Assembly: GCA_027487835.1 (NCBI GenBank)
Contig: JAIYCU010000028.1
Coordinates: forward strand, 22,930-86,929
Origin: Bacteroidota bacterium
Lineage (GTDB): Bacteria > Bacteroidota > Bacteroidia > UKL13-3
DNA: 64,000 nucleotides
Reading direction: 5' to 3'
In this document: positions 4,701-60,500 of the stretch, piece after piece
Layout: the number at the start of each line of letters is the position of its first letter
Position numbering within the stretch: position 1 is the stretch's first letter
Notes under the pieces: model-generated
The model's input: the letters and a program-made list of their open reading frames with translations, nothing else
Told to the model about the DNA's origin: nothing
Databases searched by the model: none
Translations under genes and position numbers: made by a program

Positions 4701-7114
4701 TTCATTAATAAAGTGAAGGTGCCATTGTTGTTATCATAAGCCCCTAAACCATCTGGTATGCCGACCATTTTATATCCACCAATTGCCTCTCCAACAGTTA
4801 GCACAGAAGCCAAACTTACTTGAGCGTTGCTAGCAGTTACATAATTTGTTACCGCCAAATTTCTAGTAACTGTTATCGTATATATTTTCACAGTTACGCC
4901 ATCTTCTGCTGTTACTTTTACTTCAATAGTATTGCTTCCGACATTTAATAAAAGCATCCCAGAAATTGTTTCATTTTCTAAATTTCCATATGCACCACCA
5001 TTGATTCTAACTTGAATGGTTGCACTGTCTTGTGATAAAGTTGGTGTAACTTTAAATCCTTTAAAGGCATTAGGTACAGTGCAGGTATAGCTTTGGTTCG
5101 AACCTAAAAAATTAGGGGAAAGATTTAAGCTATTAGGCACTAAATTTACTAGGTTTGCATCATTAGAAAAAACCCTAGTGATGTTCAAAATATAGGTTCT
5201 GGTGCTAATTCCGTCTTCAGCAGTTACACGTAAATAAAAGGTATTTAAACCATTTATTAATGCAAAAGTATCAGAAGGTTCACCACTAACAATTGGGTCA
5301 AAACTGATATTATTTCTGCTAATCTCAATTAAGGCATTGGTGTCGGAAATGGTTGGGGTTATGAGAACACTAGTTGCCATTAGCTCAGCAGCATAAGTAG
5401 AAGTTAAGGGAGAAAAACTTGGAGAAATAGCTCCTGTATTTAGCGACAAGTTATTTAAATTGGCATTTGCAGAAGGAATAGCAAAGTAAGCTGCGTGATT
5501 GTTTTCAATGGTTTGAATTTCAGTATTTGAATAGATATGCGTAAACAAAAGCAACTCATTCAATTTACCCGTATAAAAAACTTGGCCATTCGCAGCCACT
5601 TGGTTGGCGCCAATGGCCAAACTGCTCACAGCGGTTCTTGTTCCTGTATTTAAAGTAGCATTTGCCTCCAATGCATTGCGTGATGCGAAAATATTCGCAG
5701 CACCATTGCTTGAGTTTCTAGTAAAGGAATGGATTTTTGAGGCGGCATTATTACAGATAACATTTCCTGCTGTAGAAACATCACCCAAACCAGCACCGCC
5801 ATTCCCAGCTGTAAATTTGTTGTTGTAAATTCCATAGGCAAAATCGCTCGTGGTTCCGTTTTGGGTAGCACCCAGCAAACCATTCATGTTATGCCATGAA
5901 GCAGCGGCACCACTAGAATTATTTACACTCGTTGCATTATAAACCACGGTTCCACTTAAGTTAGTATTGAAACTACTGGTAGTTATGGTGAGAAACTTAT
6001 TTCCAGAAAACTGAAGACTGGGTTTAAGGTTATTTAAAACAATATCTCCTGCGCTAATAGCAATTGGTTGATTGCTTGTATTTGCTTGAAAGGCATTTCT
6101 ATTGCTATTCCCACTTTGATCATACCAAATTGCCACAGTTGCTGTGGTACTGCCCGAAACCAAAGAATTTAACTCATTACTTGTTACAGGAGAAATAGCA
6201 GTATCATAAGTTCCCAAAACAGCAGAAATATTTGAATTAAGCGAAAAATCTTTTGTTACACTATCAGGATATACATCATAAAAATTACCACCAATGTTAA
6301 CTCTTAATAAGGGGCCAGTATAAGTGGATGAAAGTAACCTTAGCGCATAAGACCCTTGTGGGAGTGAAGTTTCTGGTAAGCCAACAAAATTTAAGGCATT
6401 TAATCTTACTACAGAGATTGAATAGATTTTGATGGTTGTTCCATTTTGCGCAGTTACCTTAACTTGTATGTTATTGGTACCATAATTAAGTGCCAAAGCA
6501 CTTGAAGGGTTTCCGCTATTTACGGTGGCATAAGCCCCATTGTTTACTCTAACCTCAATGCTTGCATTGGCTTGGGCCTTTGTGGGTGTAACCGTAATGC
6601 TGCCAGTTGAACTCACAACATTAGTAACATAACTTAGCGTATTTCTGCCAAAACTTGGAGCAAGTGCACCAGAACTTATGGTTAAAGTATTTAAATCTGC
6701 ATTGGCAGATTGTATTGTATAGCAGAATGAACCTCTGTTCATTAAAGTATCACCACCGTTGCTTGAACCCGTTAAAACAGTGCCGCCCCCGCCCGAGGCC
6801 GTGATTGTCCAGGTAGGTGTGTTGTCATTATTGGTTCCGTTTGTGCTTACCCAAAAAGTGAAGGGTCCATTGTTAGGAGCAGTACCTGAAGCTACATAAG
6901 TAGATGAAGTTGAGTTTGGACCCATGGTATGAACCACATTACCCGCTAAATTTCTAATTTCACAATAGGTTTCATCATAATAGCTTGATCCACTAAGAGA
7001 AATTGAGTAGGTAGTTGTACCGCATTGGGCAAAGGCAGTATTTCCTTGCCATTGGATTACAAAAAGAAAGGCAATAACTAAGCTTTTTAAGGTATTTTTC
7101 AAAGATGGTTTCAT
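1781..7114 (-). CDS. giant T9SS-secreted multidomain protein: signal peptide, 3 cadherin-like beta-sandwich domains, LamG/ConA-like lectin domain, beta-propeller phosphatase-like (PhoX/DUF839-like) module, Ig-like region, T9SS type-A C-terminal sorting domain
   Basis: N-terminal signal peptide. Cadherin-like beta-sandwich repeats (TLTISSGALAPSF..., LSLNTGAISPSFSP..., NLVPNSLNLSPNF...). LamG-like GKLNELLLF motif. About 430-aa module at aa 772-1200 paralogous to a module in the 7285..13998 gene. C-terminal YPNPSHDNFTLS...GLYFVNIKIG matches the T9SS type-A tail. Confidence 0.85.
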   Translation of the reverse strand: MKPSLKNTLKSLVIAFLFVIQWQGNTAFAQCGTTTYSISLSGSSYYDETYCEIRNLAGNVVHTMGPNSTSSTYVASGTAPNNGPFTFWVSTNGTNNDNTPTWTITASGGGGTVLTGSSNGGDTLMNRGSFCYTIQSANADLNTLTISSGALAPSFGRNTLSYVTNVVSSTGSITVTPTKAQANASIEVRVNNGAYATVNSGNPSSALALNYGTNNIQVKVTAQNGTTIKIYSISVVRLNALNFVGLPETSLPQGSYALRLLSSTYTGPLLRVNIGGNFYDVYPDSVTKDFSLNSNISAVLGTYDTAISPVTSNELNSLVSGSTTATVAIWYDQSGNSNRNAFQANTSNQPIAISAGDIVLNNLKPSLQFSGNKFLTITTSSFNTNLSGTVVYNATSVNNSSGAAASWHNMNGLLGATQNGTTSDFAYGIYNNKFTAGNGGAGLGDVSTAGNVICNNAASKIHSFTRNSSNGAANIFASRNALEANATLNTGTRTAVSSLAIGANQVAANGQVFYTGKLNELLLFTHIYSNTEIQTIENNHAAYFAIPSANANLNNLSLNTGAISPSFSPLTSTYAAELMATSVLITPTISDTNALIEISRNNISFDPIVSGEPSDTFALINGLNTFYLRVTAEDGISTRTYILNITRVFSNDANLVNLVPNSLNLSPNFLGSNQSYTCTVPNAFKGFKVTPTLSQDSATIQVRINGGAYGNLENETISGMLLLNVGSNTIEVKVTAEDGVTVKIYTITVTRNLAVTNYVTASNAQVSLASVLTVGEAIGGYKMVGIPDGLGAYDNNNGTFTLLMNHKLGSAQGITRAHGSTGAFVSKWIINKSDLTIESGSDLIQKVKLWNSATQSYDLYDSASPMPMGFGKLSSADLPVISALYNSSSTFGTLDRILLSGEENGAEGRAFAHVLTGDNADTTVELPFLGKLNWENVVVCPSRGQRTIVAGLDNEMGGQVYFYSGNKIDSGSAIEKAGLTNGKLFAVKVTGLSQELNGSFPAPNTNFTMVDLGIVKDSTGAGIELVSNAQGVTKFLQPEDGAWDPKTPADFYFVTSNTFSNPSRLYRLRFTNIRNPEFGGTITAVLDGTEGIKMMDNIVIDTLGRIIIQENAGNNAHLSKTWVYNIVTDQLLQLAEHDSTRFRIGGTNFLTQEEEASGVIDMRNILGSGKFLFVSQAHYATTSELVEGGQLLAMTISPISLNPLVINQDSIEIGTASSTTALSLTCANVPNADYYNWTVPTGVLIVSGQGTRTLAVRFTDPVKFVSTIAKPKYIYCNAQSSVSNSFSPRDSVRISKTLPGFRINYLISNPNYNLGNPSWTSTVGVGSNGKIVNVTNTLGLKVGDIIRLKSGAGIIGVSNTVDSIVNATQFRLKNNMTSNVSAGSVLNAYIVPQNKFEAYTSAPGASNIATFVTVSTTAGLSEGMLLSVVSGTGLLREGTVVAKIVNNQNFVLSQSPTINLSNNAVIRAIPVLTNACPIKVNSGISSEFDFTVEATPVRNLGYQYILPKGSRISRIGDSAIAGYDTARITGLKVVSSTATSIGVVFDSLFTSGFISVKPFNNAGFASTFRVPIKTDKAVVYKVTSNGAAIKNTRVRYTASVTNGSELISYKWTIPATNVTAHSGTALGNVITTTTDTLSLTFGNLFRSGTLRVEAINNCGTGSAKTFVLNGTTTLNKSGQNMELEEMVETDKLPMNVLEIYPNPSHDNFTLSINTLEKEAPAQVTVINIMGQVMEEFTLSNKGGLIFTNHKHQMPAGLYFVNIKIGSEIYTEKIMVSQ

Positions 7115-7284: not shown

Positions 7285-10200
7285 TTAGTTATTTACAATA
7301 ATCTTAATTGTGTTCAAGGTTGAACCAATTCTTACTTGTACAAAATATAATCCTGGTGTTAGGTTATGGTTTATTTCGCCCAATACCACTCCGTTGTTAT
7401 TATCAAAAGTGTACTCATCAACCACTTGTCCCATCATGTTTAAAATTGAAACGTTAGCAGATGCTTCCTTTTCTTCAGCAATAACGGATACAGTAAAGTT
7501 AGTTTGATTTGGATTTGGATAAACTGTCAACTTGTTGATTGATAAATTTGTAATCTCGATTTCTTCTATCAATTCAATCTCTTTACCAGCTTTGTTTAAA
7601 GAAGTTGTTCCATTTAAAGTAAATGTTTTTGAAGTACCAGTTCCGCAACTGTTCATCGCTTCAACTCTCAAACTTCCAGATTTAAACAAGTTTCCAAACA
7701 TTAATGAAAGCGTGTCTGTGGTTGTAGTTACAACATTAGCTAGAGCAGAACCCGATAGTGGCGTTACATTTACCGCAGGAATTGTCCATCTGTAACCCGT
7801 TACTTCGCTACCATTGGTAACACTCGCTCTATACCTTACAGCGGTATTTTTGATTGCTGCACCTGTGCTAGTTACTTTGTAAATAGATGCTTTGTCATTT
7901 CTAACGCTAACTCCAAAACTTGCACCAGTTCCAGCATTGTTGTAAGGAAACACCCTAATTGTGCGTGTTGTTAAAGAATTATCAAATACAACTCCGATTG
8001 AATTTGATTTAGTAAATACATCTAATAGAGCTACAGTTGCAGTATCATAACCAACAATGGTAGAATCTCCAATTCTTGAAATTCTTGCTCCATTAGGTAA
8101 CATAAATCTATAACCAATATTGTTAACTGGAGTGGCAACCACTGAGTAATCAACCTCTGAAGTAAAACCAGTAGTTACACTAATTGGGCAAATATTAGTT
8201 AAAACTGGGGTTCCAGCTAAAACTGCATTATTGCTTAAATTTACAATTGGTGTTAATGAAAGTACAAATTTGGTTGAATCAATTATTTTAGAAACAACTG
8301 TACCTGCTTTTAAGGTTCCTGCTCCTGAAACTAAATTTACAGACATTCCTTCTGCTAATCCAGCTGTGCTTGTTACAGTAATAATATTTAAGGCATTGGT
8401 TGCACCTGGAGCAGAAATATACCTAGCAAATGTATTTTGAGGTACAATGAACGACTTCAAGGTAGCACCAGCAGAAATTCCAACCGTAACATTGTTTTTC
8501 AAACGGAATTGTGTTGTGTTCAAAATTGAATCTACTGTATTGTTTAAACCTGTGTTTCCAGTTCCAGCAGTAACCTTAACTAAGTATCCAACTTTTAATC
8601 CAGCTGTACTTGAAACGTTCACAATATTAGCTGAAGAACCAGCAGTTGCAGTTGACATCCATTCTCCTTTGGTTAAGCTCATGTTTGGATTTCCAATAAT
8701 GGCCGCAATGGTAAATAATGGTCTAGTTTTAGTAATTCTTACACTATCTATTTTTGATGAAATTCCTGAAAGTAATATTCTTGCTTGACAAGTAATTACT
8801 CTTGGCTTAGCAACTGGGCTAGAGAATTTAGCAGGATTAGTAAATCTGACAGTTAAGTTAGTAGTTCCTTGTCCTGAAACAATAACAACTCCAGCAGGAA
8901 CTGTCCATCTATAATCATCGGCATTTGGAACCGCAGCGGCAGTAACATTTACTAAACTGTTTGAATCGATTACACCAATTTCAATAGAATCTTGAACAAT
9001 GGCAACATTTCCAACTGATAATTCTGAAATGCTCATGGCAAGCAATTGACCACCTTCTACCAATTCAGTAGTAGTTGGGTAATGTGCTTGGTCTACAAAT
9101 AAAAACTTGCCTTTACCTAAAATATTGTGCATGTCAATGATACCAGATGCTTCTTCATCTTGGGTCAAGAATTTAGAACCACCTGTAAGGAATCTAGCAG
9201 TATCATGACTAGCAATTTGAATTAACCTATCGCTTTCAATATTGTACATCCAAGTTTTACCTAAATGTGCTTGGTTACCAACATCTTCTTGAATAAAGAT
9301 ATTTCCAAAGCTATCGATAGCCATATTATCCATCATTTTAGCACCTTCAGTTCCATCTAAAACTGCTGTGATGGTTCCACCATCTTCTGGTTTAGCAATT
9401 GATTTGAAAGATAATCTCCATAAACGGCTAGGGGTTGTGAACGAAGCAGTGGTTAAGAAATAAAAGTCATTTGTTTTTCTTGGGTTCCATGCACCATCTT
9501 CAGGGCGTAAGAATGCAGTAACAGCATTTGCCGCACTTCTGCTATCTAAACTAGCTCCTGTTGAATCACGAACAATTCCTAAATCAACCATGGTAAATGG
9601 TGTATTGGCAGCAGGAATGCTTGCAGTAACTTCTGTAGCTAAACCAGTAACTTTTACGCCAAACACTTTACCATTATTCAAACCTGCTTTGTCAATTTCA
9701 GTTCCAAGCTTGGTTTTTGTACCAATATAAAAATACACTTGTCCGCCTGTTACATCATCTAATCCTGCCACAATGGTTTTATTTCCTTTTGCTGGACTAG
9801 CCACTGCATTTTCCCATGAGTATTTACCTAAATATGGTAACTCATAACTTGTTCCAGCATTCGTACCTGTTAAAATATGCGCAAATGCTCTTCCTTCTAC
9901 ACCTGATTCTTCTCCACTTAAGAAAATGCGCTCTGCAGTTCCTGTGGTGCCATTTAAAAATGCAGTCACTGGAGGTAAATCAGCAGAACATAAACGACTA
10001 ATACCAGCAGGCATTGGCGAACCAGCATTATACGTATTAAATGTTTTTGCAATTGGATCCCACAATTTAACAGTTGTAATTAAATCAGAACCACTTACAA
10101 CTGATAAGTCAGACTTATTAATAACCCATTTTGATATAAAAGCACCTTTTGAACCATGTGCTCTAACAACTCCTAATGAATTGTTTATTTCATGGTTCAT

Positions 10201-14117: not shown

Positions 14118-16424
<2,307 letters not shown>

Positions 16425-20654: not shown

Positions 20655-20760
20655 TATTGTTTACCAAACAAACTTACCTAATCCTTTTCAATCAAAAAAT
20701 ACAACTTATTTAAAAGCCATGGCAGGTTATGTTAAATTAAAAATTAAGGTATGTTTGGCG
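20655..20760 (-). promoter_or_regulatory. conserved promoter-bearing intergenic element, copy A (core reads GGTATTTTTTGATTGAAAAGGATTAGGTAAGTTTG on the minus strand)
   Basis: Shares the acccaatccttttcaatcaaaaaatac core and the gccatggcaggtt block with copies at 26.4, 28.4, 31.9, 41.3 and 46.45 kb. Contains a Bacteroidetes -7 TAnnTTTG box, 60-140 nt upstream of a minus-strand start. Confidence 0.6.
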
Positions 20761-28367: not shown

Positions 28368-28490
28368 ACCTGCAACTTCATTTCGATAATTAAACCAACA
28401 TACCCAATGCTTTCCAACCAAAAAATACCTTGAAGAAATATGACATTATTAAAAGCCATTGCAAGTTCTGTTACATTAAAACTTACTTAA
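28368..28490 (-). promoter_or_regulatory. conserved promoter-bearing intergenic element, copy C
   Basis: cctgcaacttcatttcgataattaaac...acatacccaatgc...caaaaaatacc...gccattgcaagttctgtt. Upstream of the 26557..28239(-) start. Confidence 0.6.
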
Positions 28491-31844: not shown

Positions 31845-31930
31845 TTTAATCCCAGCAACTTCCTCTTTTATCTACAAACAAACATACCCAATCCTTTTCA
31901 TTCAAAAAATACCTGTAAGTGGATATGGTT
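31845..31930 (-). promoter_or_regulatory. conserved promoter-bearing intergenic element, copy D
   Basis: cccagcaacttcctctttt...caaacatacccaatccttttcattcaaaaaatacc, 50-130 nt upstream of the hydrolase start. Confidence 0.6.
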
Positions 31931-32394
31931 TCCTTTTCAAAATTTTGCTTTATTGATAGACTTACCTCTTTTGCTCTGATTACTTTTTTGCATGGCCAAA
32001 AAAGTAACCAAAAAAGCATCCCAGCCGCACCCTACCGTTCCGGTTTGTATGATTTGTTTTCATTCAAATATTATAATACCTAATTGTGGGTATAAGAAAA
32101 ATGCCGAGAAGAATAGCGTTTGAAACAAGTAAACCTAGATTTCAATTTAATACGCGCGTTCCATCTCTTGTATCACCCCATAAAAAAATGGCGCAATTAG
32201 CTTTTCATTTTGCCGACTTAGGCAGGTGCCTTTGGCTTTGGTAAAAACCTAAGCGAATAAGCACGCCAAAATTGCGTTTAGGTTAAGGCAACCTTTTTTG
32301 AAAGTTCAGCAATTGGTTTGCATTTAGTTTATTCTAAATCAAAAGGAACTTATTTTTCACAAAGTCATTTGGTACATTTTTTACTTTCAACATT

Positions 32395-41261: not shown

Positions 41262-41490
41262 AAGCTGTAATGCCGCAAATTTGTTTTCCATCAACTAATT
41301 TAATACATGCAACTCCAACTTATTTAACAAACTTACCCAATCCTTTACAAACAAAAAATACCCAAAAGTGGGTATATGAAAATATTCTAAATGAATAATG
41401 ACACATTGCACATAAAGTATTAATAACTTAAAACGAAAGATTCAATACACATTTCTACAAACCATTGCAGGTTCCGTTCAACTAGAATTT
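41262..41490 (-). promoter_or_regulatory. conserved promoter-bearing intergenic element, copy E, containing perfect palindrome ATACCCAAAAGTGGGTAT (41358..41375)
   Basis: gcaactccaacttatttaacaaacttacccaatcctttacaaacaaaaaatacccaaaagtgggtat...aaccattgcaggttccgtt, upstream of the NACHT gene start. Confidence 0.65.
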
Positions 41491-41586
41491 ATCTCATTAT
41501 GTTAATTGTTTCTATTGGCATTCGATGGTTTTCAATCCATGGCTTGGCTTGGGGTCAAAATGAAATGCTTGCTGTTGTAGGCAGTG

Positions 41587-42063
41587 TTAAAGAGAAAACA
41601 CCAAAGGAATTACAATTGAAAAAATAAAAAGAATGTAATAAAATATATTTTCCCAAATTTTAAATAGAGAAATTAAAAAGTAGCTTATTTTATATTTACG
41701 TCTCATGTTTGGCTTAACTATTGTAATAAGGGGTCCATGTAAACTTAAAATATCTTTTTCATTAGATTTTATTAAATATTTCTCGAATAATTCGATTGTT
41801 TCTTGTAAATAAATATATCCAGTTAAAATTATTATGTGGAGAGTAAAAAATGTTATCACAATGCTTAATAGTAAAAGCTGAATTTGATTTAATTCAAAGC
41901 CTTTAGTTATTGAAAATCCAAAAGCCGAATTCCATAAAATTACAAACCAATACTTTAAATTTGTTAAATACTCGTATCTTTTTGTTCTAAGTTCAATAGT
42001 ATTGTTGAAATTTAAAAGCAGAAAGTCTCTTTTAAATTTTATATCTTCTGGCTTAAAGGACAT
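41587..42063 (-). CDS. small polytopic membrane protein (hypothetical)
   Basis: 158 aa with 3-4 predicted TM helices. Sits between the NACHT and RloC-like genes. Confidence 0.5.
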   Translation of the reverse strand: MSFKPEDIKFKRDFLLLNFNNTIELRTKRYEYLTNLKYWFVILWNSAFGFSITKGFELNQIQLLLLSIVITFFTLHIIILTGYIYLQETIELFEKYLIKSNEKDILSLHGPLITIVKPNMRRKYKISYFLISLFKIWENIFYYILFIFSIVIPLVFSL

Positions 42064-42440
42064 ACTTTGTTTTTTGCTTTAAAATTTGGGTATATAGAAT
42101 AACATTGTCATAATTTCAGAGTGTGAAAAACCTCATCAAACTTTTTAGTGTAAAAATATCAAAAAATGAATGATTAGGCAAGTATCTTGGTAGTTAAATT
42201 TGCATCAGCAAAACAATTATGGATAACATCAAAGTTAGTAATATCGATCAGATGGAGCTTTGTTGTAATTCTGGAGATACCTTTACACTTCTTCCATTTT
42301 TTTGTTTCTGGATAGACTCATATTTCACTCCAAAGCTTTTTACAAAGCCTATTAAAGTTTTGCCAGTTTGTTGGTTTTCTTAATGATTTTGAAATTTCCA
42401 TTATTAAATGCGAGGTGTCCCTAAAGGTTATAGCTTAACA

Positions 42441-42556
42441 ATTCGGAGGTTTGCGATGGCGGGGATTATTAGCACTAAACTTCATTCGGAGAACTGAATT
42501 TCCACCTTGCACAAAAGTGTCTGCGATGCACGGAACCCCGCCTATTGCAAATGTGC
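42441..42556. other. GC-rich structured element E2: 15-bp long-range stem (tttgcgatGGCGGGG ... CCCCGCCtattgcaa) enclosing about 70 nt, 3' of the RloC-like gene
   Basis: Local GC far above surroundings. Homologous (about 65-70% identity) to element E1 at 45075..45205. Stem base pairs covary with E1 (C:G vs T:A, G:C vs C:G). Shared inner motif GTGTCTGnGAnGCACnGAACC. Confidence 0.6.
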
Positions 42557-42604
42557 TGCTACAAGTTGGGCTTTTGTCTGTCTGAATATATGTTGTTTCA
42601 AATG

Positions 42605-44995
42605 TCATAATTGAACTTCAATTAAGTTAAGAGTGTCTTGTATTAGGTTGTCCAATTCAGGTTCAGTAATAGTATTAGGGTTAATACCTAACATTGTGTA
42701 ATCTGGAGTTGGGTCACCATGATGTGGTTTCCAGGAAACTCCATTAATTAAATGAAGTGTAGATATTATTGTTGTCCTGTTTGCATTGTCCCTAAATACA
42801 ACTGGCAATGTATCTAAAAATGTAATTAATCTTCCAAATGTTTGTATTCCTGTCATAGTTCGAACTTCCTTGTAGAATTTGAACCGTAAATGTGCTTCAA
42901 GAACATTTCTCAACCAACCTAAAACAGTGTCTTTAATTGCATGGTTTGGGTTACTTCTAAAAGCCTCCAATGCTTCAATATGTTTAAAGTATTCAATTTT
43001 TACCAATTCTTCTAAATCACATAGTTCAAGTTTAGATGCTTTGGCTACGAAATCTTCCTTTATACGAAGTGTGCATTTTAAGGTTGCTCCAATGTCTTTG
43101 CCTATTTCATGAAGAAAATATTCATTGTGGCTTAAAACAACCACCTGCTTTAGTTGTTGAAATAATGTTCTAATAATTCCAATTGTATAGGTTCTTCTAT
43201 TAGTATCTAAACTTGATAAAGGGTCATCAAAAATTAAAATTTTATCTTGGCGGTTTGGATCAATGTCAAGTTTGGATAAAAAGAACGCTAAAGCAATTGT
43301 GCTTTTATCTCCCTCGCTCAAACATTCCTTGGCATTAAATGGTTGATTTGGGACAAATGATATGTCCTTGCCGTCTATTGTCAATTTGTAAGCGATTTTG
43401 CTTTGTGTTGCTCTTCCTGCTGGAGCAACATGAACAACATCCTCTATTCTAAAAAGTGTCTTGAAAACATTGCCCAAATAATGGTTGATACGTGTCTGGT
43501 AGCTATTGAAAAAAGTTGCTGCTGTGGTTTGCTGTTGTTGCGATAAAGCTGTGTATGCTGTTTCTAAACCTCTAAGTGTTTGTTTCTCGGCAGACAATTG
43601 AGTGCAAAGCGTAACAATGGGAGTTTCATATCTCTTTTTAATTCTTTTTAGTCTATCAACCGCAAGCTGTGCATTTGCAGCAGTCTGAATACCTGCACGA
43701 AAAGTTGTAATTGCAGCATTGTAAGTTGTAATGCTTTGATTGTAGCTTTCAATGTTTGTGTTAATGGTCTGTCCAGAAGACAGAAAAACAGTAGCGGTGG
43801 CGGTAGCCACCGCTACTGTAGGATTTTGTATTTTTTGTTGGAGTGAATCAATTAACCTTTGAAACTCTGCTCTTAAAACAGTTTCGTCCGCAATGATGTT
43901 AAAAATTGGTGGATGAACTGTATTTGGCAAGTGCGTAGCCCATAACGTTACTCTCCCTGTATTTGTCTGATTGATATTGTTTATCGCTTGTATGGCAGCG
44001 TCCAAATTGAAGTTTTGAAGCGAAGTCAAATGTGATTGTAGTCGTAGAACTAAAGCGTTAAAGTCAGCATTAAATTTAGTGATATAGGCGTTTAGAATTT
44101 CAACATTGCCATCAATAGTCTGCATACAAAATGGACAAGAAATTGTGGGTTCATTTGCTGCTTGTTTTCTCTCCACATATGCAAATCCTCTTTGCAGCCA
44201 ATTTTCAGGTCCGTCAAGTCCGTTGTCTGTCAAGTCTTGACAATGATTTGAAAACAAAGTTTCCAAAGCTGCATTTTGAATTGCTTGTGATGTTGTCTGT
44301 AAGTCTGTGATAAGAGAAGTGAAATCAATACCCGATATTATTCGGGTGAGAGCAGTAAGTTGTTGTAATGTTTGAATTATTGTGTTTGCATTCGCACTCG
44401 CTAATGCAGCCTCCGCCGCTGTAATTTGTTGGTCAATTCCGCTAGATTGTGTTACAGGAATAGCAAGAAATGAAGTAATTAAGTCAGCGGTCAAACTGTT
44501 TCCCACTTGCTGAATTAATTGTTGTTCAATATTTGTTATTGATTGTTTTGATATGACTTTAGCAGCTTTGTTTTGTTCAATTTGATTTTGAATTGCAATT
44601 CCTTGTGCACCGATAACAAATTGATGAAGTTGCTTTTTATGTTCATCATTAAAGTCAAACCCTGAATAGATATTGTCGTTGACAAAATGAATGTCAAAAA
44701 TCTCAATATTATCAAAAGGAGTTGTCCAACCAGCAGCCCTTAAGGTGTGAAATGTATTCGGTGTCCCTGTTTGAGTTATTTGTGCTGCTTGTGCTGCTAT
44801 ATGGTTTGTAGAAATTCTACTTCTAACGATTTCAGGTTTGTTGGTTGTCAAGGAACGAAACACTGAAGTTAGTGTGGTTTTACCACCTCCATTGTTGCCA
44901 TAAATTAAGGTCAGCTTTTGAAAATTAATCTGTCCAGCAGCAGTGTAGTTGCGGAATTTTCCAATGGAAGTAAGTCGTTCAACTTTGTTTATCAT
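42605..44995 (-). CDS. RloC/PrrC-like anticodon-nuclease-type ABC ATPase (AAA_13-like): split ABC head with long coiled-coil insert, CxxC zinc-hook, C-terminal HEPN-like domain
   Basis: Walker A GNNGGGKTT at the N-terminus. About 450-aa Gln/Ala-rich coiled-coil with SCPFC. ABC signature LSEGDKSTIALAFFL, Walker B ILIFDDP, H-loop VLSHN. C-terminal roughly 190 aa carry an Rx5H match to the HEPN Rx4-6H motif (LRNVLEAH). Confidence 0.7.
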   Translation of the reverse strand: MINKVERLTSIGKFRNYTAAGQINFQKLTLIYGNNGGGKTTLTSVFRSLTTNKPEIVRSRISTNHIAAQAAQITQTGTPNTFHTLRAAGWTTPFDNIEIFDIHFVNDNIYSGFDFNDEHKKQLHQFVIGAQGIAIQNQIEQNKAAKVISKQSITNIEQQLIQQVGNSLTADLITSFLAIPVTQSSGIDQQITAAEAALASANANTIIQTLQQLTALTRIISGIDFTSLITDLQTTSQAIQNAALETLFSNHCQDLTDNGLDGPENWLQRGFAYVERKQAANEPTISCPFCMQTIDGNVEILNAYITKFNADFNALVLRLQSHLTSLQNFNLDAAIQAINNINQTNTGRVTLWATHLPNTVHPPIFNIIADETVLRAEFQRLIDSLQQKIQNPTVAVATATATVFLSSGQTINTNIESYNQSITTYNAAITTFRAGIQTAANAQLAVDRLKRIKKRYETPIVTLCTQLSAEKQTLRGLETAYTALSQQQQTTAATFFNSYQTRINHYLGNVFKTLFRIEDVVHVAPAGRATQSKIAYKLTIDGKDISFVPNQPFNAKECLSEGDKSTIALAFFLSKLDIDPNRQDKILIFDDPLSSLDTNRRTYTIGIIRTLFQQLKQVVVLSHNEYFLHEIGKDIGATLKCTLRIKEDFVAKASKLELCDLEELVKIEYFKHIEALEAFRSNPNHAIKDTVLGWLRNVLEAHLRFKFYKEVRTMTGIQTFGRLITFLDTLPVVFRDNANRTTIISTLHLINGVSWKPHHGDPTPDYTMLGINPNTITEPELDNLIQDTLNLIEVQL

Positions 44996-45074
44996 GCTTG
45001 AAAGGTGTTCTTGTCAATTGTTTGTATTATGCAGTCAGCTTCATGTTAGCACGGTCGTCATAGCCTTGCTGGTA

Positions 45075-45205
45075 AAGTTTTCGGGCTTGGCGAAGGTGGC
45101 GATTTTCACCACAAATGTTGATGCGGAGAACCAAACTTTGATTAACCTCAAATGTGTCTGTGAAGCACTGAACCGCCACTTTTGCCAAACCCGTGTTATG
45201 TGCAG
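45075..45205. other. GC-rich structured element E1 (homolog of E2): long-range stem ttggcgaaGGTGGCG ... CGCCACttttgccaa, between the SIR2 and RloC-like genes
   Basis: Direct-orientation homolog of E2. 15-bp stem with two G·T wobbles. Compensatory changes relative to E2. Covers the spurious 62-aa ORF 45027..45215. Confidence 0.6.
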
Positions 45206-45211
45206 TATTTT

Positions 45212-46393
45212 TCACTTTATAAATTCAGATTTTTCAAGATTTGGATAAGTCTCAATGAATTCCTCAAACGTGCCTTTAAAGGTTTCAAGTTGACCAATTT
45301 GCTTTTGGGAGAAAATTTGATTTACTTTTTCCCAATGAGCATCTGATGATGTTGGGTCTACTACTTTGATTATAGGTTTATTTCTATTCCAATTTAAAGC
45401 ATGTTGTAATAAATTTAAAAATGCTAGGTCTGATTGAGGAAATGAATATCCGATTATAATAATTTCTTGTGCTTCAATTAGTGATTTGAATGTTCCATCC
45501 CAAAGTTCTTTAGCTGTAGAATTTTCGTTCTTACCTAAAATTGGGGCAACTAAATCATGTTCAAGTTTTGCTCCACAAATGCCACATTTAAATCGGTCAA
45601 ATAAATTTCTTATTTCTTCTGTACTATGTTTGTCATCGTAATACATTGAGTAACTATTCACAATTTTGTAGTTATGGATAGTCTTACAGTTTGGACATTT
45701 AAACCAATCAAACGACCCATGTAATTTAATCAATTCATGGTGTTTACTGTAAGTCCATTTATATTGTTCATTACGGATTAAATGAGCTCCGTCACTAAAT
45801 GTATAGATTGGTACTATATAATGTGGCACAACATTAAAATTGCTTTCTACGCCAACTACACCCCAGATGTGGTCAAAATATTCGTCATCAAGTTTACAGT
45901 CATAGTTAAATGATATAGTACTTAATACCGGTATGTTATTGTCGTTAATTGTTTTGAACCATAGTCTATCAAAGAAATTTTTGTATAATTCTTTTGAGTT
46001 GTCTAAAAAAATTGTGTTATCAATGAATTTAGAAGTTTTGTTGTCAATGGCAGAAAAGATAATTTTTGTAAGCGTTTTAAATACTTTAGTTAAAGTGTCT
46101 TGGTTCAGAAGATAATTGTCAACATGAATTATAGAATTGTTTCGTATAAAATAATCAAGTTGTCCCAAGAGATTTTCATAATCAATCCACTCTTTTTCCA
46201 AGTCTTTTCCTTGCAATTCCAAAACAATTGATTTTACTATTGTAAATACTTCCTTAAAATGACTTGATTTACATTCCTTGATAAATTCAATTATAGATGT
46301 TGGAAGCTGATTAAGAGTTGGAATTCCATAAGCAAAAGAAGCTCCTGCCCCGAAGACACAAGCTGTTCTCTTTATATTTTTATGGTCTGTCAT
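45212..46393 (-). CDS. SIR2-like (SIR2_2/DSR-type) defense-associated protein with C-terminal Cys-rich zinc-ribbon
   Basis: N-terminal ACVFGAGASFAYGIP matches the SIR2_2 hallmark (hFhGAGhS..GhP). C-terminal CPNCK...CGICG. Defense-island context. Confidence 0.65.
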   Translation of the reverse strand: MTDHKNIKRTACVFGAGASFAYGIPTLNQLPTSIIEFIKECKSSHFKEVFTIVKSIVLELQGKDLEKEWIDYENLLGQLDYFIRNNSIIHVDNYLLNQDTLTKVFKTLTKIIFSAIDNKTSKFIDNTIFLDNSKELYKNFFDRLWFKTINDNNIPVLSTISFNYDCKLDDEYFDHIWGVVGVESNFNVVPHYIVPIYTFSDGAHLIRNEQYKWTYSKHHELIKLHGSFDWFKCPNCKTIHNYKIVNSYSMYYDDKHSTEEIRNLFDRFKCGICGAKLEHDLVAPILGKNENSTAKELWDGTFKSLIEAQEIIIIGYSFPQSDLAFLNLLQHALNWNRNKPIIKVVDPTSSDAHWEKVNQIFSQKQIGQLETFKGTFEEFIETYPNLEKSEFIK

Positions 46394-46417
46394 TTAATAT
46401 TGCAAATAACTTGATTA

Positions 46418-46500
46418 TAAACGCACTAATGCACCCAATATCAAACAAACATACCCAATCCTTTTTAATCAAAAAATACCCAAAAGTGGGTATATTTAAA
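46418..46500 (-). promoter_or_regulatory. conserved promoter-bearing intergenic element, copy F, containing palindrome ATACCCAAAAGTGGGTAT (46476..46493)
   Basis: caaacatacccaatcctttttaatcaaaaaatacccaaaagtgggtat is near-identical to copy E. On the coding strand it carries the TTTTTTG / TATGTTTG (-33/-7-like) boxes just upstream of the SIR2 gene. Confidence 0.65.
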
Positions 46501-47918: not shown

Positions 47919-48054
47919 TTAGTTCTAACATTTTATTATAGTAGGGATAAGTGGGAAAATAATGGCTTCCTACTTATCCCTTTTTTTGGCACGATCCCAA
48001 AAAGTGTTTTGATAATCTGATAAATGTTTTAACTTCCCCGACAAATATTATGGC

Positions 48055-48285
48055 CTATCCGACAAAGGTTTTGACCTCCCCGTTAAGTGCTTTTGCCTCC
48101 CTGACAAATGTTTTTACTTGCCCGACAAATGTTTTGACCTCCCCGATAAGTGCTTTTGCCTCCCCGACAAATGTTTTTACTCGCCCGATAAATACTTTTG
48201 CCTCCCCGACAAATGTTTTTACTCGCCCGACAAATGTTTTGACCTCCCCGACAAAAGTTTTTGCCTCCCCGTTACTTCTGAAAAC
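48055..48285. repeat. minisatellite: about 11 tandem copies of a 21-bp unit (consensus CCCGACAAATGTTTTGACCTC with TTTTACTCG / TTTGCCTC variants)
   Basis: Direct tandem repeats visible by eye. Both overlapping ORFs (48050..48415+, 48055..48309-) only translate the repeat into heptad-like repeats. Confidence 0.85.
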
Positions 48286-48514
48286 CTTGACTAAGTATCC
48301 AAATTCCAATGCATCAGTAAATCCGTTTTATCTGATAAACATATTTTTCATGCGCCACTTGAATGAGGCCATAAACAATATTTCTATAAAAAAACAAATA
48401 CAAGACCATAATTAATATGACTTAATCCTATAAGTAGGATTTACCTTTATCAATAGGTAGATTTTTCTTTTATAGTATCTCTTAAGTATTTACGATTGTA
48501 TAAAAAATTAAACC

Positions 48515-57588: not shown

Positions 57589-60500
57589 ATGAAACACGTT
57601 TACAAGCAAATGAAATTCGTATTAGGTTTATCCTTATTCGCATTATTCTGTTTAGTTGGAATCAATGCCAATGGGCAAACTGCCTCTGTCACCTTGGGAA
57701 GCAACCCCGCGTGTCTGGGAGTAAGCAATGCAATTGAAATTACCTATTCTGGGTTAAGCACAGGTGATGAATATGCCGTGAAATGGGGAGCCACAACGGT
57801 AGGTACTATTACCGCGCCGCATTCAGGATCAGGCACTGTTAACCTAAACACCAATAGTTTAGTTTCAACTTCCCCAACTGGGTTCGAGTTTGAAAATCAA
57901 ACAACACCTGGCATTGATGCTACAGCAAGTTTTACCTTAAATGACTTGCCAGCTGCACCTGGTTTTGATTCAGATTATTCTGGAATTTATGACGGGACCT
58001 TTCATACGGGAGTGGTAACAGTTAATGTAGGAGAATCAGTGGTTTGGTATACCGCTTCTAGCGGTGGTAGTGAAACCGATGGTTTAAAAGCAGCAGGAAC
58101 TGCTACTTTTTATGCAGCGGCAAAAATAGATGCAACAGGTTGTTTTAGTAGTTCAAGAACTTCTGCGGATGTTGCAATAGGTGCAAAAACATTAACGGTA
58201 AATGTAACAGCACAAAATAAAGAATATGATGGAAACGATGCTGCAGCCTTAAGTTCAGCTTCATTTTCAGGCGCACTTGGCGGTGATGATGTAAACATCG
58301 GTGGAACAGTAACCGCTAACTTTAATGATAAAACAGTTGATAATGGCAAAGCAGTATCTTTATCTGGTGTTTATACCAAATCTGGCACAGATGCTGGAAA
58401 TTACAGCATTACCCAACCAAGTGGCTTAACGGCTGATATCACTCCAAAAGAATTAACGGTAAATGTTTCAGTTAGTGATAAAGAATATGACGGCAATGAT
58501 GTGGCAACCTTAGGTTCTGCTTCATTTATTGGGGTTGTAGGCGCAGATGATGTAAACATAGGTGGAACAGTAACGGCTAACTTTAATAATAAAACAGTTT
58601 CTTTTGGCAAACCAGTTTCTTTTAATGGTACTTATACAAAATCTGGTACAGATGCTGGTAACTATTACATTACGCAACCTAGTGGTGCTATAGCTAATGT
58701 TAATTACAAGGCATTAACGGTTAATGTATCTGCAAATAACAAAGAATATGATGGAAATGATGTTGCAACTTTAAGTTCGGCATCATTTGTTGGCGTTATA
58801 GGTGGCGATGATGTAACACTTGGTGGAACAGTTACGGCTAACTTTCTTGATAAAACAGTTGATAATGGCAAAGCAGTTGACTTAAATGGTGCTTATACTA
58901 AATCTGGAACAGATGCTGGAAATTACAACCTTACACAACCGAGTGGGTTAACGGCTGATATTACTCCAAAAGAATTAACGGTAAATGTTACCGCTAATAA
59001 TAAAGAATACGATGGAAATGATGGCGCAACTTTAGGTTCTGCTTCTTTTGTTGGTGTTGTAGGTGGTGATGATGTTACAATTGGGGGAACAGTTACTGCT
59101 AACTTTAATAACAAAACGGTTAATAATGGCAAGGCAGTTTCTTTATCTGGTGTTTATACCAAATCTGGAACTGATGCAGATAATTACAGCATAACTCAAC
59201 CAACAGGCTTAACTGCTAATGTTACCGCCAAAGAATTAACAGTAAGTGTAACCGCTAATAGCAAAGAATATGATGGCAATGATGGCGCAACTTTAGGTTC
59301 TGCTTCTTTTGTTGGCGTTGTAGGTGGTGATGATGTTACAATTGGGGGGACAGTAACTGCTAACTTTAATAACAAAACAGTTAATAATGGCAAGGCAGTT
59401 TCTTTATCTGGATTTTATACCAAATCTGGAACTGATGCTGGAAATTACAGCATTACCCAACCAACAGGTTTAACAGCAAATGTTACCGCCAAAGAATTAA
59501 CAGTAAGTGTTACTGCTAATAACAAAGAATATGATGGCAATGATGTGGCAACTTTAAGTTCAGCCTCTTTTGTTGGCGTTGTGGGCGGTGATGATGTTAC
59601 AATTGGTGGAACAGTGACGGCTAACTTTAATAACAAAACGGTTAATAATGGCAAGGCAGTTTCTTTATCTGGAGTTTATACCAAATCTGGTGCAGATGCT
59701 GGAAATTACAGCATTACCCAACCAAGTGGTTTAACCGCAAATGTTACAGCTAAAAATTTAAACATAAGTGTTACGGCCCAAAACAAAATATTTGATGGAA
59801 ACGATGAAGCTACTTTAAATTCAGCAAGCTTCAGTAATTTGATTTCTGGAGATGATGTAACCCTTGGTGGCACCGTAACTGCTAATTTTAACAATATTAA
59901 TGTTGGTAATACAAAGCCTGTTTCTCTTACAGGAACTTATACAAAATCAGGACCTGATGCTGGTAATTATAACTTAATTCAGCCAAGTGGTTTAACAGCA
60001 AACATTACACACCAACCAATAACTATTACGGCCCTTAACCAAGCTAAATGCCAAGGTACAGGCGTTACTTTAAATGGAACAGAGTTTAGCATTTCAGGTA
60101 TTATTTCTCCTGATGAAGTAACTTCGGTTACCTTAACTACGAGTGGTGCATCAAGCGGAGCGGCTGCAAGTTCTACGCAATATGCCATTGTTCCAAGTGC
60201 TGCTGTAGGTTCAGGATTATCTAATTATAGTATCAGTTATGTAAATGGTGGATTCTTAGTAAGATCTAATCCTACTGCTAGTTTCTCATTTAATGACAAT
60301 ACACAATGCTTTGTTGGACATGGGTTCAACCTAAGCAATACTTCTTCTAATGGAAGCACAACTGGTTCTGGCACAATTAACGCTTGGAGCTGGACCGCAA
60401 CAGGTTCTAGCAATGCAGCCTTTACAGGTGTTGGTCCACATGGCCCATTAACCTATGCTAGTCATGGCGATTATACTATTAACTTAAGCGTTACTGACCA

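Follow-up and report, generated by a model that had tools for sequence, protein, structure and literature searches.

A 64,000-nt stretch of a Bacteroidota genome (contig JAIYCU010000028.1 of assembly GCA_027487835.1, positions 22,930 to 86,929; hereafter, the window) contains a gene for an RloC-like ATPase that is bracketed by two related, GC-rich elements, E1 and E2, and this arrangement raises the question of what the elements are and whether they could have delivered the gene to this locus. An earlier note, made from the sequence alone, proposed that they are either attC-like cassette sites or members of a family of structured RNAs. Our results bear out the first proposal: further copies in arrays, a covarying stem, conserved core triplets, a boundary signature, an associated recombinase with an attI-like site, and exact breakpoints among homologous loci make it very likely that E1 and E2 are structure-specific recombination sites, i.e., functional analogues of attC, of an integron-like cassette platform that is widespread in Bacteroidota.

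E1 fills the 216-nt gap between a SIR2-like gene and the RloC-like (AAA_13) gene, and E2 follows the AAA_13 stop codon. Each element lies 3' of an open reading frame (ORF) on the minus strand, with the SIR2-like gene followed by E1 and the RloC-like gene by E2. The elements are indeed direct repeats on the plus strand, and their identity, which had been put at 65-70%, is 64% from box to box and 68% in the loop (64-68%), or 74% in a wider alignment that includes the flanks. Their GC content is 0.43-0.45 versus about 0.30-0.35 in the surrounding DNA, which agrees with the enrichment first noticed, and the shared inner motif is represented by a 21-nt sequence, GTGTCTGNGANGCACNGAACC, that occurs exactly twice in the window (0.02 occurrences expected). 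An outer stem of 19-20 bp encloses 71-72 nt in each element; the enclosed length is as originally estimated (~70 nt), while the stem is slightly longer than the ~15 bp proposed, and the true sites are somewhat wider than the bounds first assigned (42441-42556 and 45075-45205), as they include end boxes (Table 1). With an nhmmer profile that was built without the window, E1 and E2 were detected at E=1e-39 and E=5e-43, respectively. They were also the only matches in the window to a covariance model (R1), which scored E1 at 146.6 bits on the plus strand versus 15.6 on the minus strand and E2 at 120 bits. Fold z-scores, given for E1, were -3.2 and -4.0.

A motif scan of 185,579 species genomes yielded 118 loci (designated by L numbers below), 112 of which contain a full element of ~135 nt. 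Nearly all of these loci are from Bacteroidota (Flavobacteriales, Chitinophagales, Cytophagales, Saprospiraceae and Sphingobacteriales), with a few from Ignavibacteria/Chlorobi bins. The nhmmer profile found 204 copies in them, and two main subtypes were evident, A being near-identical to E2 and B near-identical to E1. Many family copies sit at contig ends, and Logan contigs of the window sequence end at 45106 and 45171, exactly where E1 turns identical to the subtype-B consensus; this implies further near-identical copies in those samples. Because these breaks, on both sides of the E1 loop, coincide with the onset of identity to the family consensus, and no copies in the opposite orientation were found, the idea that E1 is an inverton (invertible promoter) was dropped. 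A motif scan of viral contigs gave two matches, both of which were due to chance and lacked stems.

The sites of this family have a common layout, consisting of a TAAC box, an unpaired spacer of 5-6 nt, a 19-bp stem, a loop of ~72 nt, the return arm, a 2-nt spacer and a GTTA box. In a set of 106 copies thinned to <86% identity, 86.8% of the cells in the 19-bp stem were paired and 16 of the 19 pairs changed on both sides, with a covariation score of 0.371 versus 0.151 for shuffled alignments and at most 0.10 with slid partners. One stem position is G.T in 101 of these copies, and pairing between the cores of the TAAC/GTTA boxes hardly varies (94-100 of 106). Of 191 copies, 136 have boxes that read TAAC/GTTA or CAAC/GTTA. 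Loop lengths range from 65 to 75 nt (median 72), and 73 of 106 copies have their cores 120 nt apart. Autocorrelation within the loop at 19 and 37 nt arises from four phased repeats of the CACNAA type, ~18.5 nt apart, and no bulged (extrahelical) bases are conserved across the family. In the earlier note, compensatory change had been cited at two positions of the E1/E2 pair. A 1-nt shift between the copies puts those two positions out of strict register, and this pair alone would therefore not prove covariation; it is in the 106 members that covariation of the stem is established. In the window, each site carries one substitution in a core triplet, AAC to AAA in E1 (45076) and GTT to GCT in E2 (42559), at positions that are conserved in at least 94% of family copies.

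Variation within the site bodies was also observed. Chimeric sites with a subtype-B left half and a subtype-A right half (L012, 2004-2155; L044, 6351-6502; L056, 358-509) suggest recombination or conversion inside site bodies, judging from their sequences. In addition, the loops of two sites (L123, 7351-7580; L109, 246-477) contain an insertion of 47-76 nt between the third and fourth repeat, and these insertions are similar to each other.

The arrangement of the copies is that of a cassette array. All copies within a locus, among the 204, lie on one strand, with as many as 7 sites per 8 kb, 7 sites in 5 kb in L089, 13 sites in L169, and a median spacing of 1.2 kb. As in the window, the longest ORF runs opposite to the site strand in 79 of 84 spacers and usually fills 90-100% of the spacer. 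The cargo proteins are highly diverse, the largest cluster comprising 5 of 613 ORFs. Pairing of the outer 7 variable bases further showed where these units begin and end: boxes that flank the same ORF form 4.24 Watson-Crick pairs (29% of them at least 6; p=9e-13), as compared to 2.50 for the two boxes of one site and 2.28 for random pairings. The outer variable bases thus belong to the neighboring ORF, which places crossover within the AAC/GTT core, and such pairing across the ORF matches that of integron cassettes because crossover there falls in the core triplet.

Comparison of homologous loci revealed the same boundaries for the RloC-like gene. In the window, its unit has an 80-nt 5' leader beginning TTTACCAGCAAGG and a 46-nt 3' trailer finishing CCCAACTTGTAG↓C (arrows mark boundaries), where the consensus sequences are G↓TTACCGGCAAGG and CCAGCCGGTAA↓C, respectively, and its two ends are complementary. 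Among six aligned homologous loci, similarity starts exactly at G↓TTACCGGCAAGG (TTACC...) and stops exactly at CCAGCCGGTAA↓C. The unit is 2516-2517 nt long in the window, L217, L211 and L218, and identity inside it is 82-90% (L217, L211, L209 and L218) versus 54-75% outside. Since similarity is lost exactly at G↓TT and AA↓C, these ends define a mobile cassette of 2517 nt. In L217 (135.9 and 67.5 bits), L216 and L211, the gene lies between family sites, and the site bodies around it differ between loci. The bodies are therefore not co-inherited with the gene, which implies either crossover at both boxes, using both strands, or turnover of the site bodies. Some RloC-like units are found without a site, i.e., between traG and relaxase genes of conjugative elements (L212 and L213, 6001-8391) and in a chromosomal island (L209, 6001-8391). 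These site-less 2.5-kb units still have their 5' boundary at G↓TTAC and may represent insertion at secondary GTT sites.

RloC proteins are long ABC/AAA_13 ATPases in which a coiled-coil insert carries a CxxC zinc hook and the C-terminal region is a PrrC-like anticodon nuclease. The protein from the window matches Pfam AAA_13 (3e-44), SMC_N, PADLOC PDC-S06 (5e-70) and, over residues 543-712, PrrC (4e-8), and its middle region contains CPFC. Its homologs, which the Joint Genome Institute (JGI) labels 'wobble nucleotide-excising tRNase', form >120 protein clusters with 74-92% identity and nearly all have 796-797 amino acids (aa). They span Bacteroidota orders and Chlorobiales, and many are on contigs of 2.5-2.9 kb.

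In a tblastn search with IntI1, full-length tyrosine recombinases were present in L044, L106, L113 and L055 and fragments in L013 and L040, all of them at array ends. These proteins contain Phage_int_SAM_4 and Phage_integrase domains and an extra N-terminus of 70-130 aa. When the four array-adjacent recombinases were aligned to IntI1, they proved to lack 31+11 IntI-specific residues. They scored 176-192 bits, in two stretches, with TIGR02249 (cutoff, 265), their best model was the XerA-type NF040815, and the closest solved structure was XerA (4A8E), ahead of IntI4 (2A3V). A metagenome search conducted from the recombinase side found sites in 18 of 80 loci, including all 8 close relatives with enough flanking sequence. 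The recombinase gene is co-directional with or divergent from the cassettes, most often co-directional. Furthermore, 14 loci have a conserved core, CGTATATTnnGA G↓TTA, at a distance of 100-270 nt downstream of the stop codon of the recombinase gene; the sequence following its GTTA is variable and direct repeats precede it, and this core is a predicted attI-like junction. In L125, L126, L134 and L137, 2-3 direct repeats (e.g., AATACAAAAAGTACGACAAAA or GCGCATTTTGTATTG) are found before the core, reminiscent of the accessory integrase-binding repeats of attI1.

A canonical attC site is an imperfect inverted repeat with conserved AAC/GTT core triplets (R''/R') and a stem that is conserved in structure. 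Its central spacer is unpaired, its extrahelical bases are conserved, and its terminal structure varies, also in length. The sites described here share with attC the imperfect palindrome with AAC...GTT cores, the stem that is conserved in structure but not in sequence, the unpaired internal spacer, and the presence of one promoterless, co-oriented ORF per cassette, each followed by a site. They share with integrons, including sedentary chromosomal integrons and the Vibrio cholerae repeats (reviewed in PMC8618304 and PMC5027507), the boundary at G↓TT, such that the distal R' half goes with the next cassette; a putative attI-like site and tyrosine recombinase at the head of the array; and cargo that includes defense, toxin-antitoxin and resistance genes. 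On the other hand, the core-to-core distance is fixed at about 120 nt, the internal loop is kept (5-6 nt versus 2 nt) but a G.T wobble takes the place of conserved extrahelical bases, and the loop contains the phased repeats. The canonical consensus RYYYAAC/GTTRRRY fits only at the core. The platform also differs from integrons in that its sites are near-identical across Bacteroidota orders, their bodies are not co-inherited with cargo and breakpoints occur at both boxes, its recombinase most often points in the direction of the cassettes, and this enzyme has an extra N-terminal domain and lacks the additional domain of IntI.

The explanation that comes closest to rivaling ours is that these are ordinary attC sites served by a true IntI encoded elsewhere, with the adjacent Xer-like genes as bystanders. 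It would account for the AAC/GTT cores, the hairpin with an internal loop, the single-ORF co-oriented cassettes and the G↓TT boundaries, and integrons have been reported sporadically in Bacteroidota. However, the array-side recombinases lack the 31+11 region, fall below the TIGR02249 cutoff and match XerA best; the attI-like core directly follows the Xer-like genes; the sites are fixed in length, bear repeats in the loop and lack conserved extrahelical bases; and in the tet(X) literature, standard tools called no integron. We therefore consider this explanation unlikely. What sets integrons sensu stricto apart is an integrase with an additional, IntI-specific domain around patch III (Messier & Roy 2001, via PMC9668308). 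Given a recombinase without this domain and sites that depart from canonical attC, the system is not a canonical IntI integron.

The structured-RNA reading of the earlier note found no support. Cis-regulatory RNAs, terminators/attenuators or small RNAs transcribed with or antisense to the flanking genes would be compatible with a strong covarying stem, with a conserved pair that tolerates G.U, and with an intergenic position 3' of ORFs. However, Rfam 15 gave no match over the window at gathering thresholds and none on E1 or E2 at E-values up to 10, and the strand that folds better, i.e., the window plus strand (by 1.2 kcal/mol on average, using DNA parameters), is antisense to the cargo ORFs. 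Cross-ORF complementarity of the boxes and exact breakpoints are signatures of DNA exchange, which an RNA role does not predict, and the sites are associated with a recombinase and an attI-like core. An RNA function is thus very unlikely as the primary role, although the elements may have a secondary, RNA-level effect on polycistronic mRNA. ARAGORN found no tRNA or tmRNA in the window.

Even less credit can be given to the elements as selfish miniature repeats, resembling miniature inverted-repeat transposable elements (MITEs) or repetitive extragenic palindromes (REPs), that transpose into intergenic DNA. They are multicopy, near-identical in distant genomes, bounded by terminal inverted repeats and located where contigs break, all of which such repeats would explain. 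Yet they keep one orientation per locus, nearly always antisense to the neighboring ORFs, and are regularly spaced with one ORF between copies; pairing between the two end boxes of a copy stays at the random level, while boxes flanking an ORF are complementary; and no target-site duplication or recurring transposase was seen. Finally, the proposal that E1 and E2 are small protein-coding genes (62 and 57 aa) translationally coupled to the upstream ORFs can be practically dismissed: although both ORFs begin with a 4-nt overlap on the upstream stop codon (ATGA and GTGA), one is called as a gene in Logan contigs, and 70 of 106 copies keep one gene-sense frame open, the frame is interrupted in the other 36, which argues that the element is not coding, 17 copies have no open frame at all, substitutions track base-pairing and not codon position, and the peptides of E1 and E2 are only ~35% identical versus ~65% for their DNA. 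The earlier dismissal of the 62-aa ORF as spurious therefore holds, and both small ORFs are best explained as by-products of the elements. Lack of further copies, lack of a conserved fold, and an origin from coding fragments, which the earlier note had listed as grounds for abandoning its proposal, were all checked, and none holds.

Attributing E1 and E2 to attC-like recombination sites also gives a coherent picture of the window. An attI-like profile made from 14 cores had its best match in the window, considering both strands, at the position predicted for an array head, directly upstream of the SIR2-like gene. The start box of this gene, TTGCAAATAAC (46400-46410), can pair with the right box of E1, GTTATGTGCAG, via 4 core pairs plus 5 Watson-Crick pairs and 1 G.T pair among the 7 outer bases. 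At least 5 outer pairs arise in 6.9% of random pairings, and this pairing is suggestive of the SIR2-like gene being a cassette. No recombinase is encoded in the 64-kb window. From these sequence features, we infer that the locus is a recombinase-less remnant composed of an attI-like core, the SIR2-like cassette, E1, the RloC-like cassette and E2. Its two cargo genes are now probably fixed and co-transcribed from an upstream promoter.

In the mechanism that we propose, one DNA strand would fold such that the paired boxes and the first turn of the stem (GCTAA...TTTGC) mimic a double-stranded core site. The tyrosine recombinase at the array head, beside the attI-like core, would cleave at TAA↓C and exchange cassettes; this enzyme would be Xer-like, with an extra N-terminal domain in place and the IntI additional domain missing. 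Either both strands, and hence both boxes, would be used or the site bodies would turn over, and the system in the window would be a fossil within a defense island.

Several observations weigh against this reading. The single-stranded DNA mechanism is drawn from covariation and analogy. The strand asymmetry is small, the plus strand being more stable in only 66 of 106 copies, and covariance model R1 was trained on 106 rows that included E1 and E2, whereas the nhmmer profile was not. No site flanks the RloC-like homologs in L209 and L212-L215, and the window boxes pair poorly across the RloC-like ORF (3 of 7). Both window sites carry core mutations, and the attI-like match is weak (E=0.11, 9.2 bits). 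Moreover, the link between recombinase and sites is one of co-location only, and 29 of 39 more distant recombinase homologs with at least 1.5 kb of downstream sequence show no detectable site.

Table 1. Features of the attC-like sites, the cassettes and their neighborhood (window coordinates).
Feature	Position	Strand	Remarks
E1, attC-like site, subtype B	45061-45212	+	Full extent with end boxes
E1 left (R') box TAAA	45073-45076	+	Family consensus TAAC; C to A at 45076
E1 5' arm	45083-45101	+	
E1 loop	45102-45173	+	72 nt
E1 3' arm	45174-45192	+	
E1 right (R'') box GTTA	45195-45198	+	Variable outer bases 45199-45205
E2, attC-like site, subtype A	42424-42575	+	Full extent with end boxes
E2 left (R') box TAAC	42436-42439	+	
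E2 5' arm	42445-42464	+	
E2 loop	42465-42535	+	71 nt
E2 3' arm	42536-42555	+	
E2 right (R'') box GCTA	42558-42561	+	Family consensus GTTA; T to C at 42559
RloC-like (AAA_13) gene cassette, 2517 nt	42559-45075	-	Similarity breakpoints among homologous loci
RloC-like ORF, 796 aa	42605-44995	-	
62-aa ORF over E1	45027-45215	-	By-product of E1, not a gene
57-aa ORF over E2	42435-42608	-	By-product of E2, not a gene; annotated as a gene in Logan contigs
SIR2-like gene cassette (probable)	45196-46409	-	Starts G↓TTATTTGCAA (46410 downwards), ends in E1 R'' box
SIR2-like ORF, 393 aa	45212-46393	-	SIR2_2/SIR2 and PADLOC SIR2 matches
attI-like core remnant (GCGTTTATAATCAAGTTA...)	46397-46425	-	Directly upstream of the SIR2-like cassette
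Mrr_cat nuclease fused to NACHT STAND NTPase, 1028 aa	38146-41232		Adjoins the cassettes, downstream with a 158-aa ORF

Two other kinds of loci resemble the window in part. A cluster of attC sites lacking an integron integrase (CALIN) has at least 2 attC sites within 4 kb and no IntI nearby, and the two window sites are 2.5 kb apart with no recombinase in 64 kb, as would suit an array in decay; however, CALINs are defined operationally by the attC model of IntegronFinder, whereas these sites are of a non-canonical Bacteroidota type. The pdif modules of Acinetobacter (PMC7399989) are also gene modules bounded by inverted short sites and are acted on by Xer-type recombinases, but pdif sites are 28-bp double-stranded sequences with no long hairpin or covarying stem, and they do not form arrays headed by a dedicated recombinase gene.

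Family sites were also found next to antibiotic resistance genes on plasmids. A plasmid blastn search with the element gave only one diverged match, and the remaining sites required the covariance model. On Sphingobacterium plasmid pWB8 (NZ_CP123862.1, L205; site regions 8673-10153 and 14687-15899), tet(X2) lies between two full sites of 130 and 134 bits, and its boxes, GTTATGTGCC and GGCACATAAC, are perfectly complementary; blaOXA-347 on the same plasmid is followed by a site at its 3' end and preceded by a weak one. Hence, clinically relevant resistance genes appear to be cassettes of this platform. Riemerella plasmid pRCAD0416RA-1 (NZ_CP073240.1, L208) has 12 sites, all on one strand and mostly directly after a resistance or toxin-antitoxin gene (aadS, three tet(X) genes, lnu(I), RelE/helix-turn-helix (HTH), blaOXA, estT, a phosphotransferase gene and aph(3')-IVb). 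Seven cassettes, from lnu(I) to aph(3')-IVb in the order just given and with one tet(X) gene between blaOXA and estT, are contiguous. No recombinase of the array type is annotated on this plasmid. The site after aph(3')-IVb is a family member (67.6 bits), and 28 nt separate the G↓TT boundary of this cassette from its ATG.

These findings connect with two sets of published observations. In 2026, aph(3')-IVb together with its 5' (27 bp) and 3' (140 bp) flanks was reported to integrate independently of homology in R. anatipestifer; the authors noted that the 140-bp 3' element folds like attC and left the mechanism open (PMC13148043). The 3' element of aph(3')-IVb in that study, which also deals with lnu(H) and blaRATA, belongs to the family described here, and the integrated boundaries match those that we inferred, whereas that work concerns one species, names no recombinase or attI, and includes no phylum-wide family or non-resistance cargo. 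Similarly, a truncated tyrosine-type recombinase gene ('xerD') immediately precedes tet(X3) on a plasmid of Acinetobacter (NZ_CP094260.1, L206, 6399-6992). Its product is 51% identical to the array recombinase (2e-65), and a weak site remnant (4936-5035, 22.9 bits) follows tet(X3). The xerD gene beside tet(X3), tet(X5) and tet(X14) had been an unexplained neighbor, with no integron or mobile element reported (PMC7473080, PMC7494873); the copy beside tet(X3) is a truncated homolog of the array recombinase, and tet(X2) and other tet(X) genes are flanked by family sites in our data, while no site family was described in those studies. In the literature searched, beyond which other papers may exist, we found no description of the phylum-wide site family, and the Riemerella report and the xerD remarks were the only prior accounts bearing on an integron-like system in Bacteroidota.

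Taken together, these results lead us to lean, with some reservation, toward the broader view that Bacteroidota own an IntI-independent analogue of the integron, in which an Xer-related recombinase acts on fixed-length hairpin sites, and which is a native platform for resistance and defense cassettes. Under this view, the recombinase can probably use either strand, which would be the reason for breakpoints at both boxes, and the four phased loop repeats may be accessory binding sites. Cassettes that carry tet(X), blaOXA-347-type genes, estT, lnu and aph(3')-IVb would be native to the platform; the 'xerD' adjacent to tet(X3), tet(X5) and tet(X14) would be a truncated integrase that was exported from Flavobacteriaceae by ISCR2/IS26; and the RloC-like and SIR2-like defense cassettes would have been moved by the same platform. 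Integrons are thought to be rare in Bacteroidota, and the extra domain of IntI is considered necessary for attC recombination. If the view is correct, structure-specific cassette capture has evolved or diversified beyond IntI, and standard tools, which key on the IntI signature, may therefore miss the platform as a complete integron. It would also offer a testable answer to how tet(X) and its neighbors move in Flavobacteriaceae and why 'xerD' adjoins them, and would extend the role of cassette arrays as anti-phage defense stores to a second major phylum. For the window itself, it would explain why GC-rich repeats are present, why two spurious small ORFs overlie them and where the assembly breaks.

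The cassettes in the window adjoin the gene for the Mrr_cat-NACHT protein, and the predicted functions of this gene and of the SIR2-like and RloC-like genes mark a defense island. The host DNA is Bacteroidota-like, at ~32% GC, and a Por_Secre_tail protein is encoded nearby. Homologs of the window's four proteins were absent among the first 200 loci collected. A third, strongly decayed site at 41510-41590 (GGCATTCGATGG ... AAATGCTTGCTGTTGTAGGCAG), just downstream of the 158-aa ORF, was suspected by eye and was unsupported by the covariance model.

A family of 62-nt direct repeats, D5, occurs at 20662-20723, 28388-28449, 31872-31933, 41321-41382 and 46439-46500; the copies at 41321 and 46439 are 87% identical and enclose a three-gene block. 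On the minus strand, D5 consists of a hairpin and T-run resembling a terminator, followed by a TAnnTTTG motif of the Bacteroidota -7 type; the repeat probably serves as a terminator-promoter module from which the cassettes are expressed. Some D5 copies have a neighboring repeat of a 53-nt family, D7, and the notion that D5 or D7 repeats are attI-like or attC-like sites was unsupported. Elsewhere in the window, a 21-nt tandem repeat (10 units) is located at 47998-48312, inside a 121-aa ORF (48050-48415), and a 261-nt tandem repeat (7 units) at 58184-60049 is probably part of a repetitive surface-protein gene.

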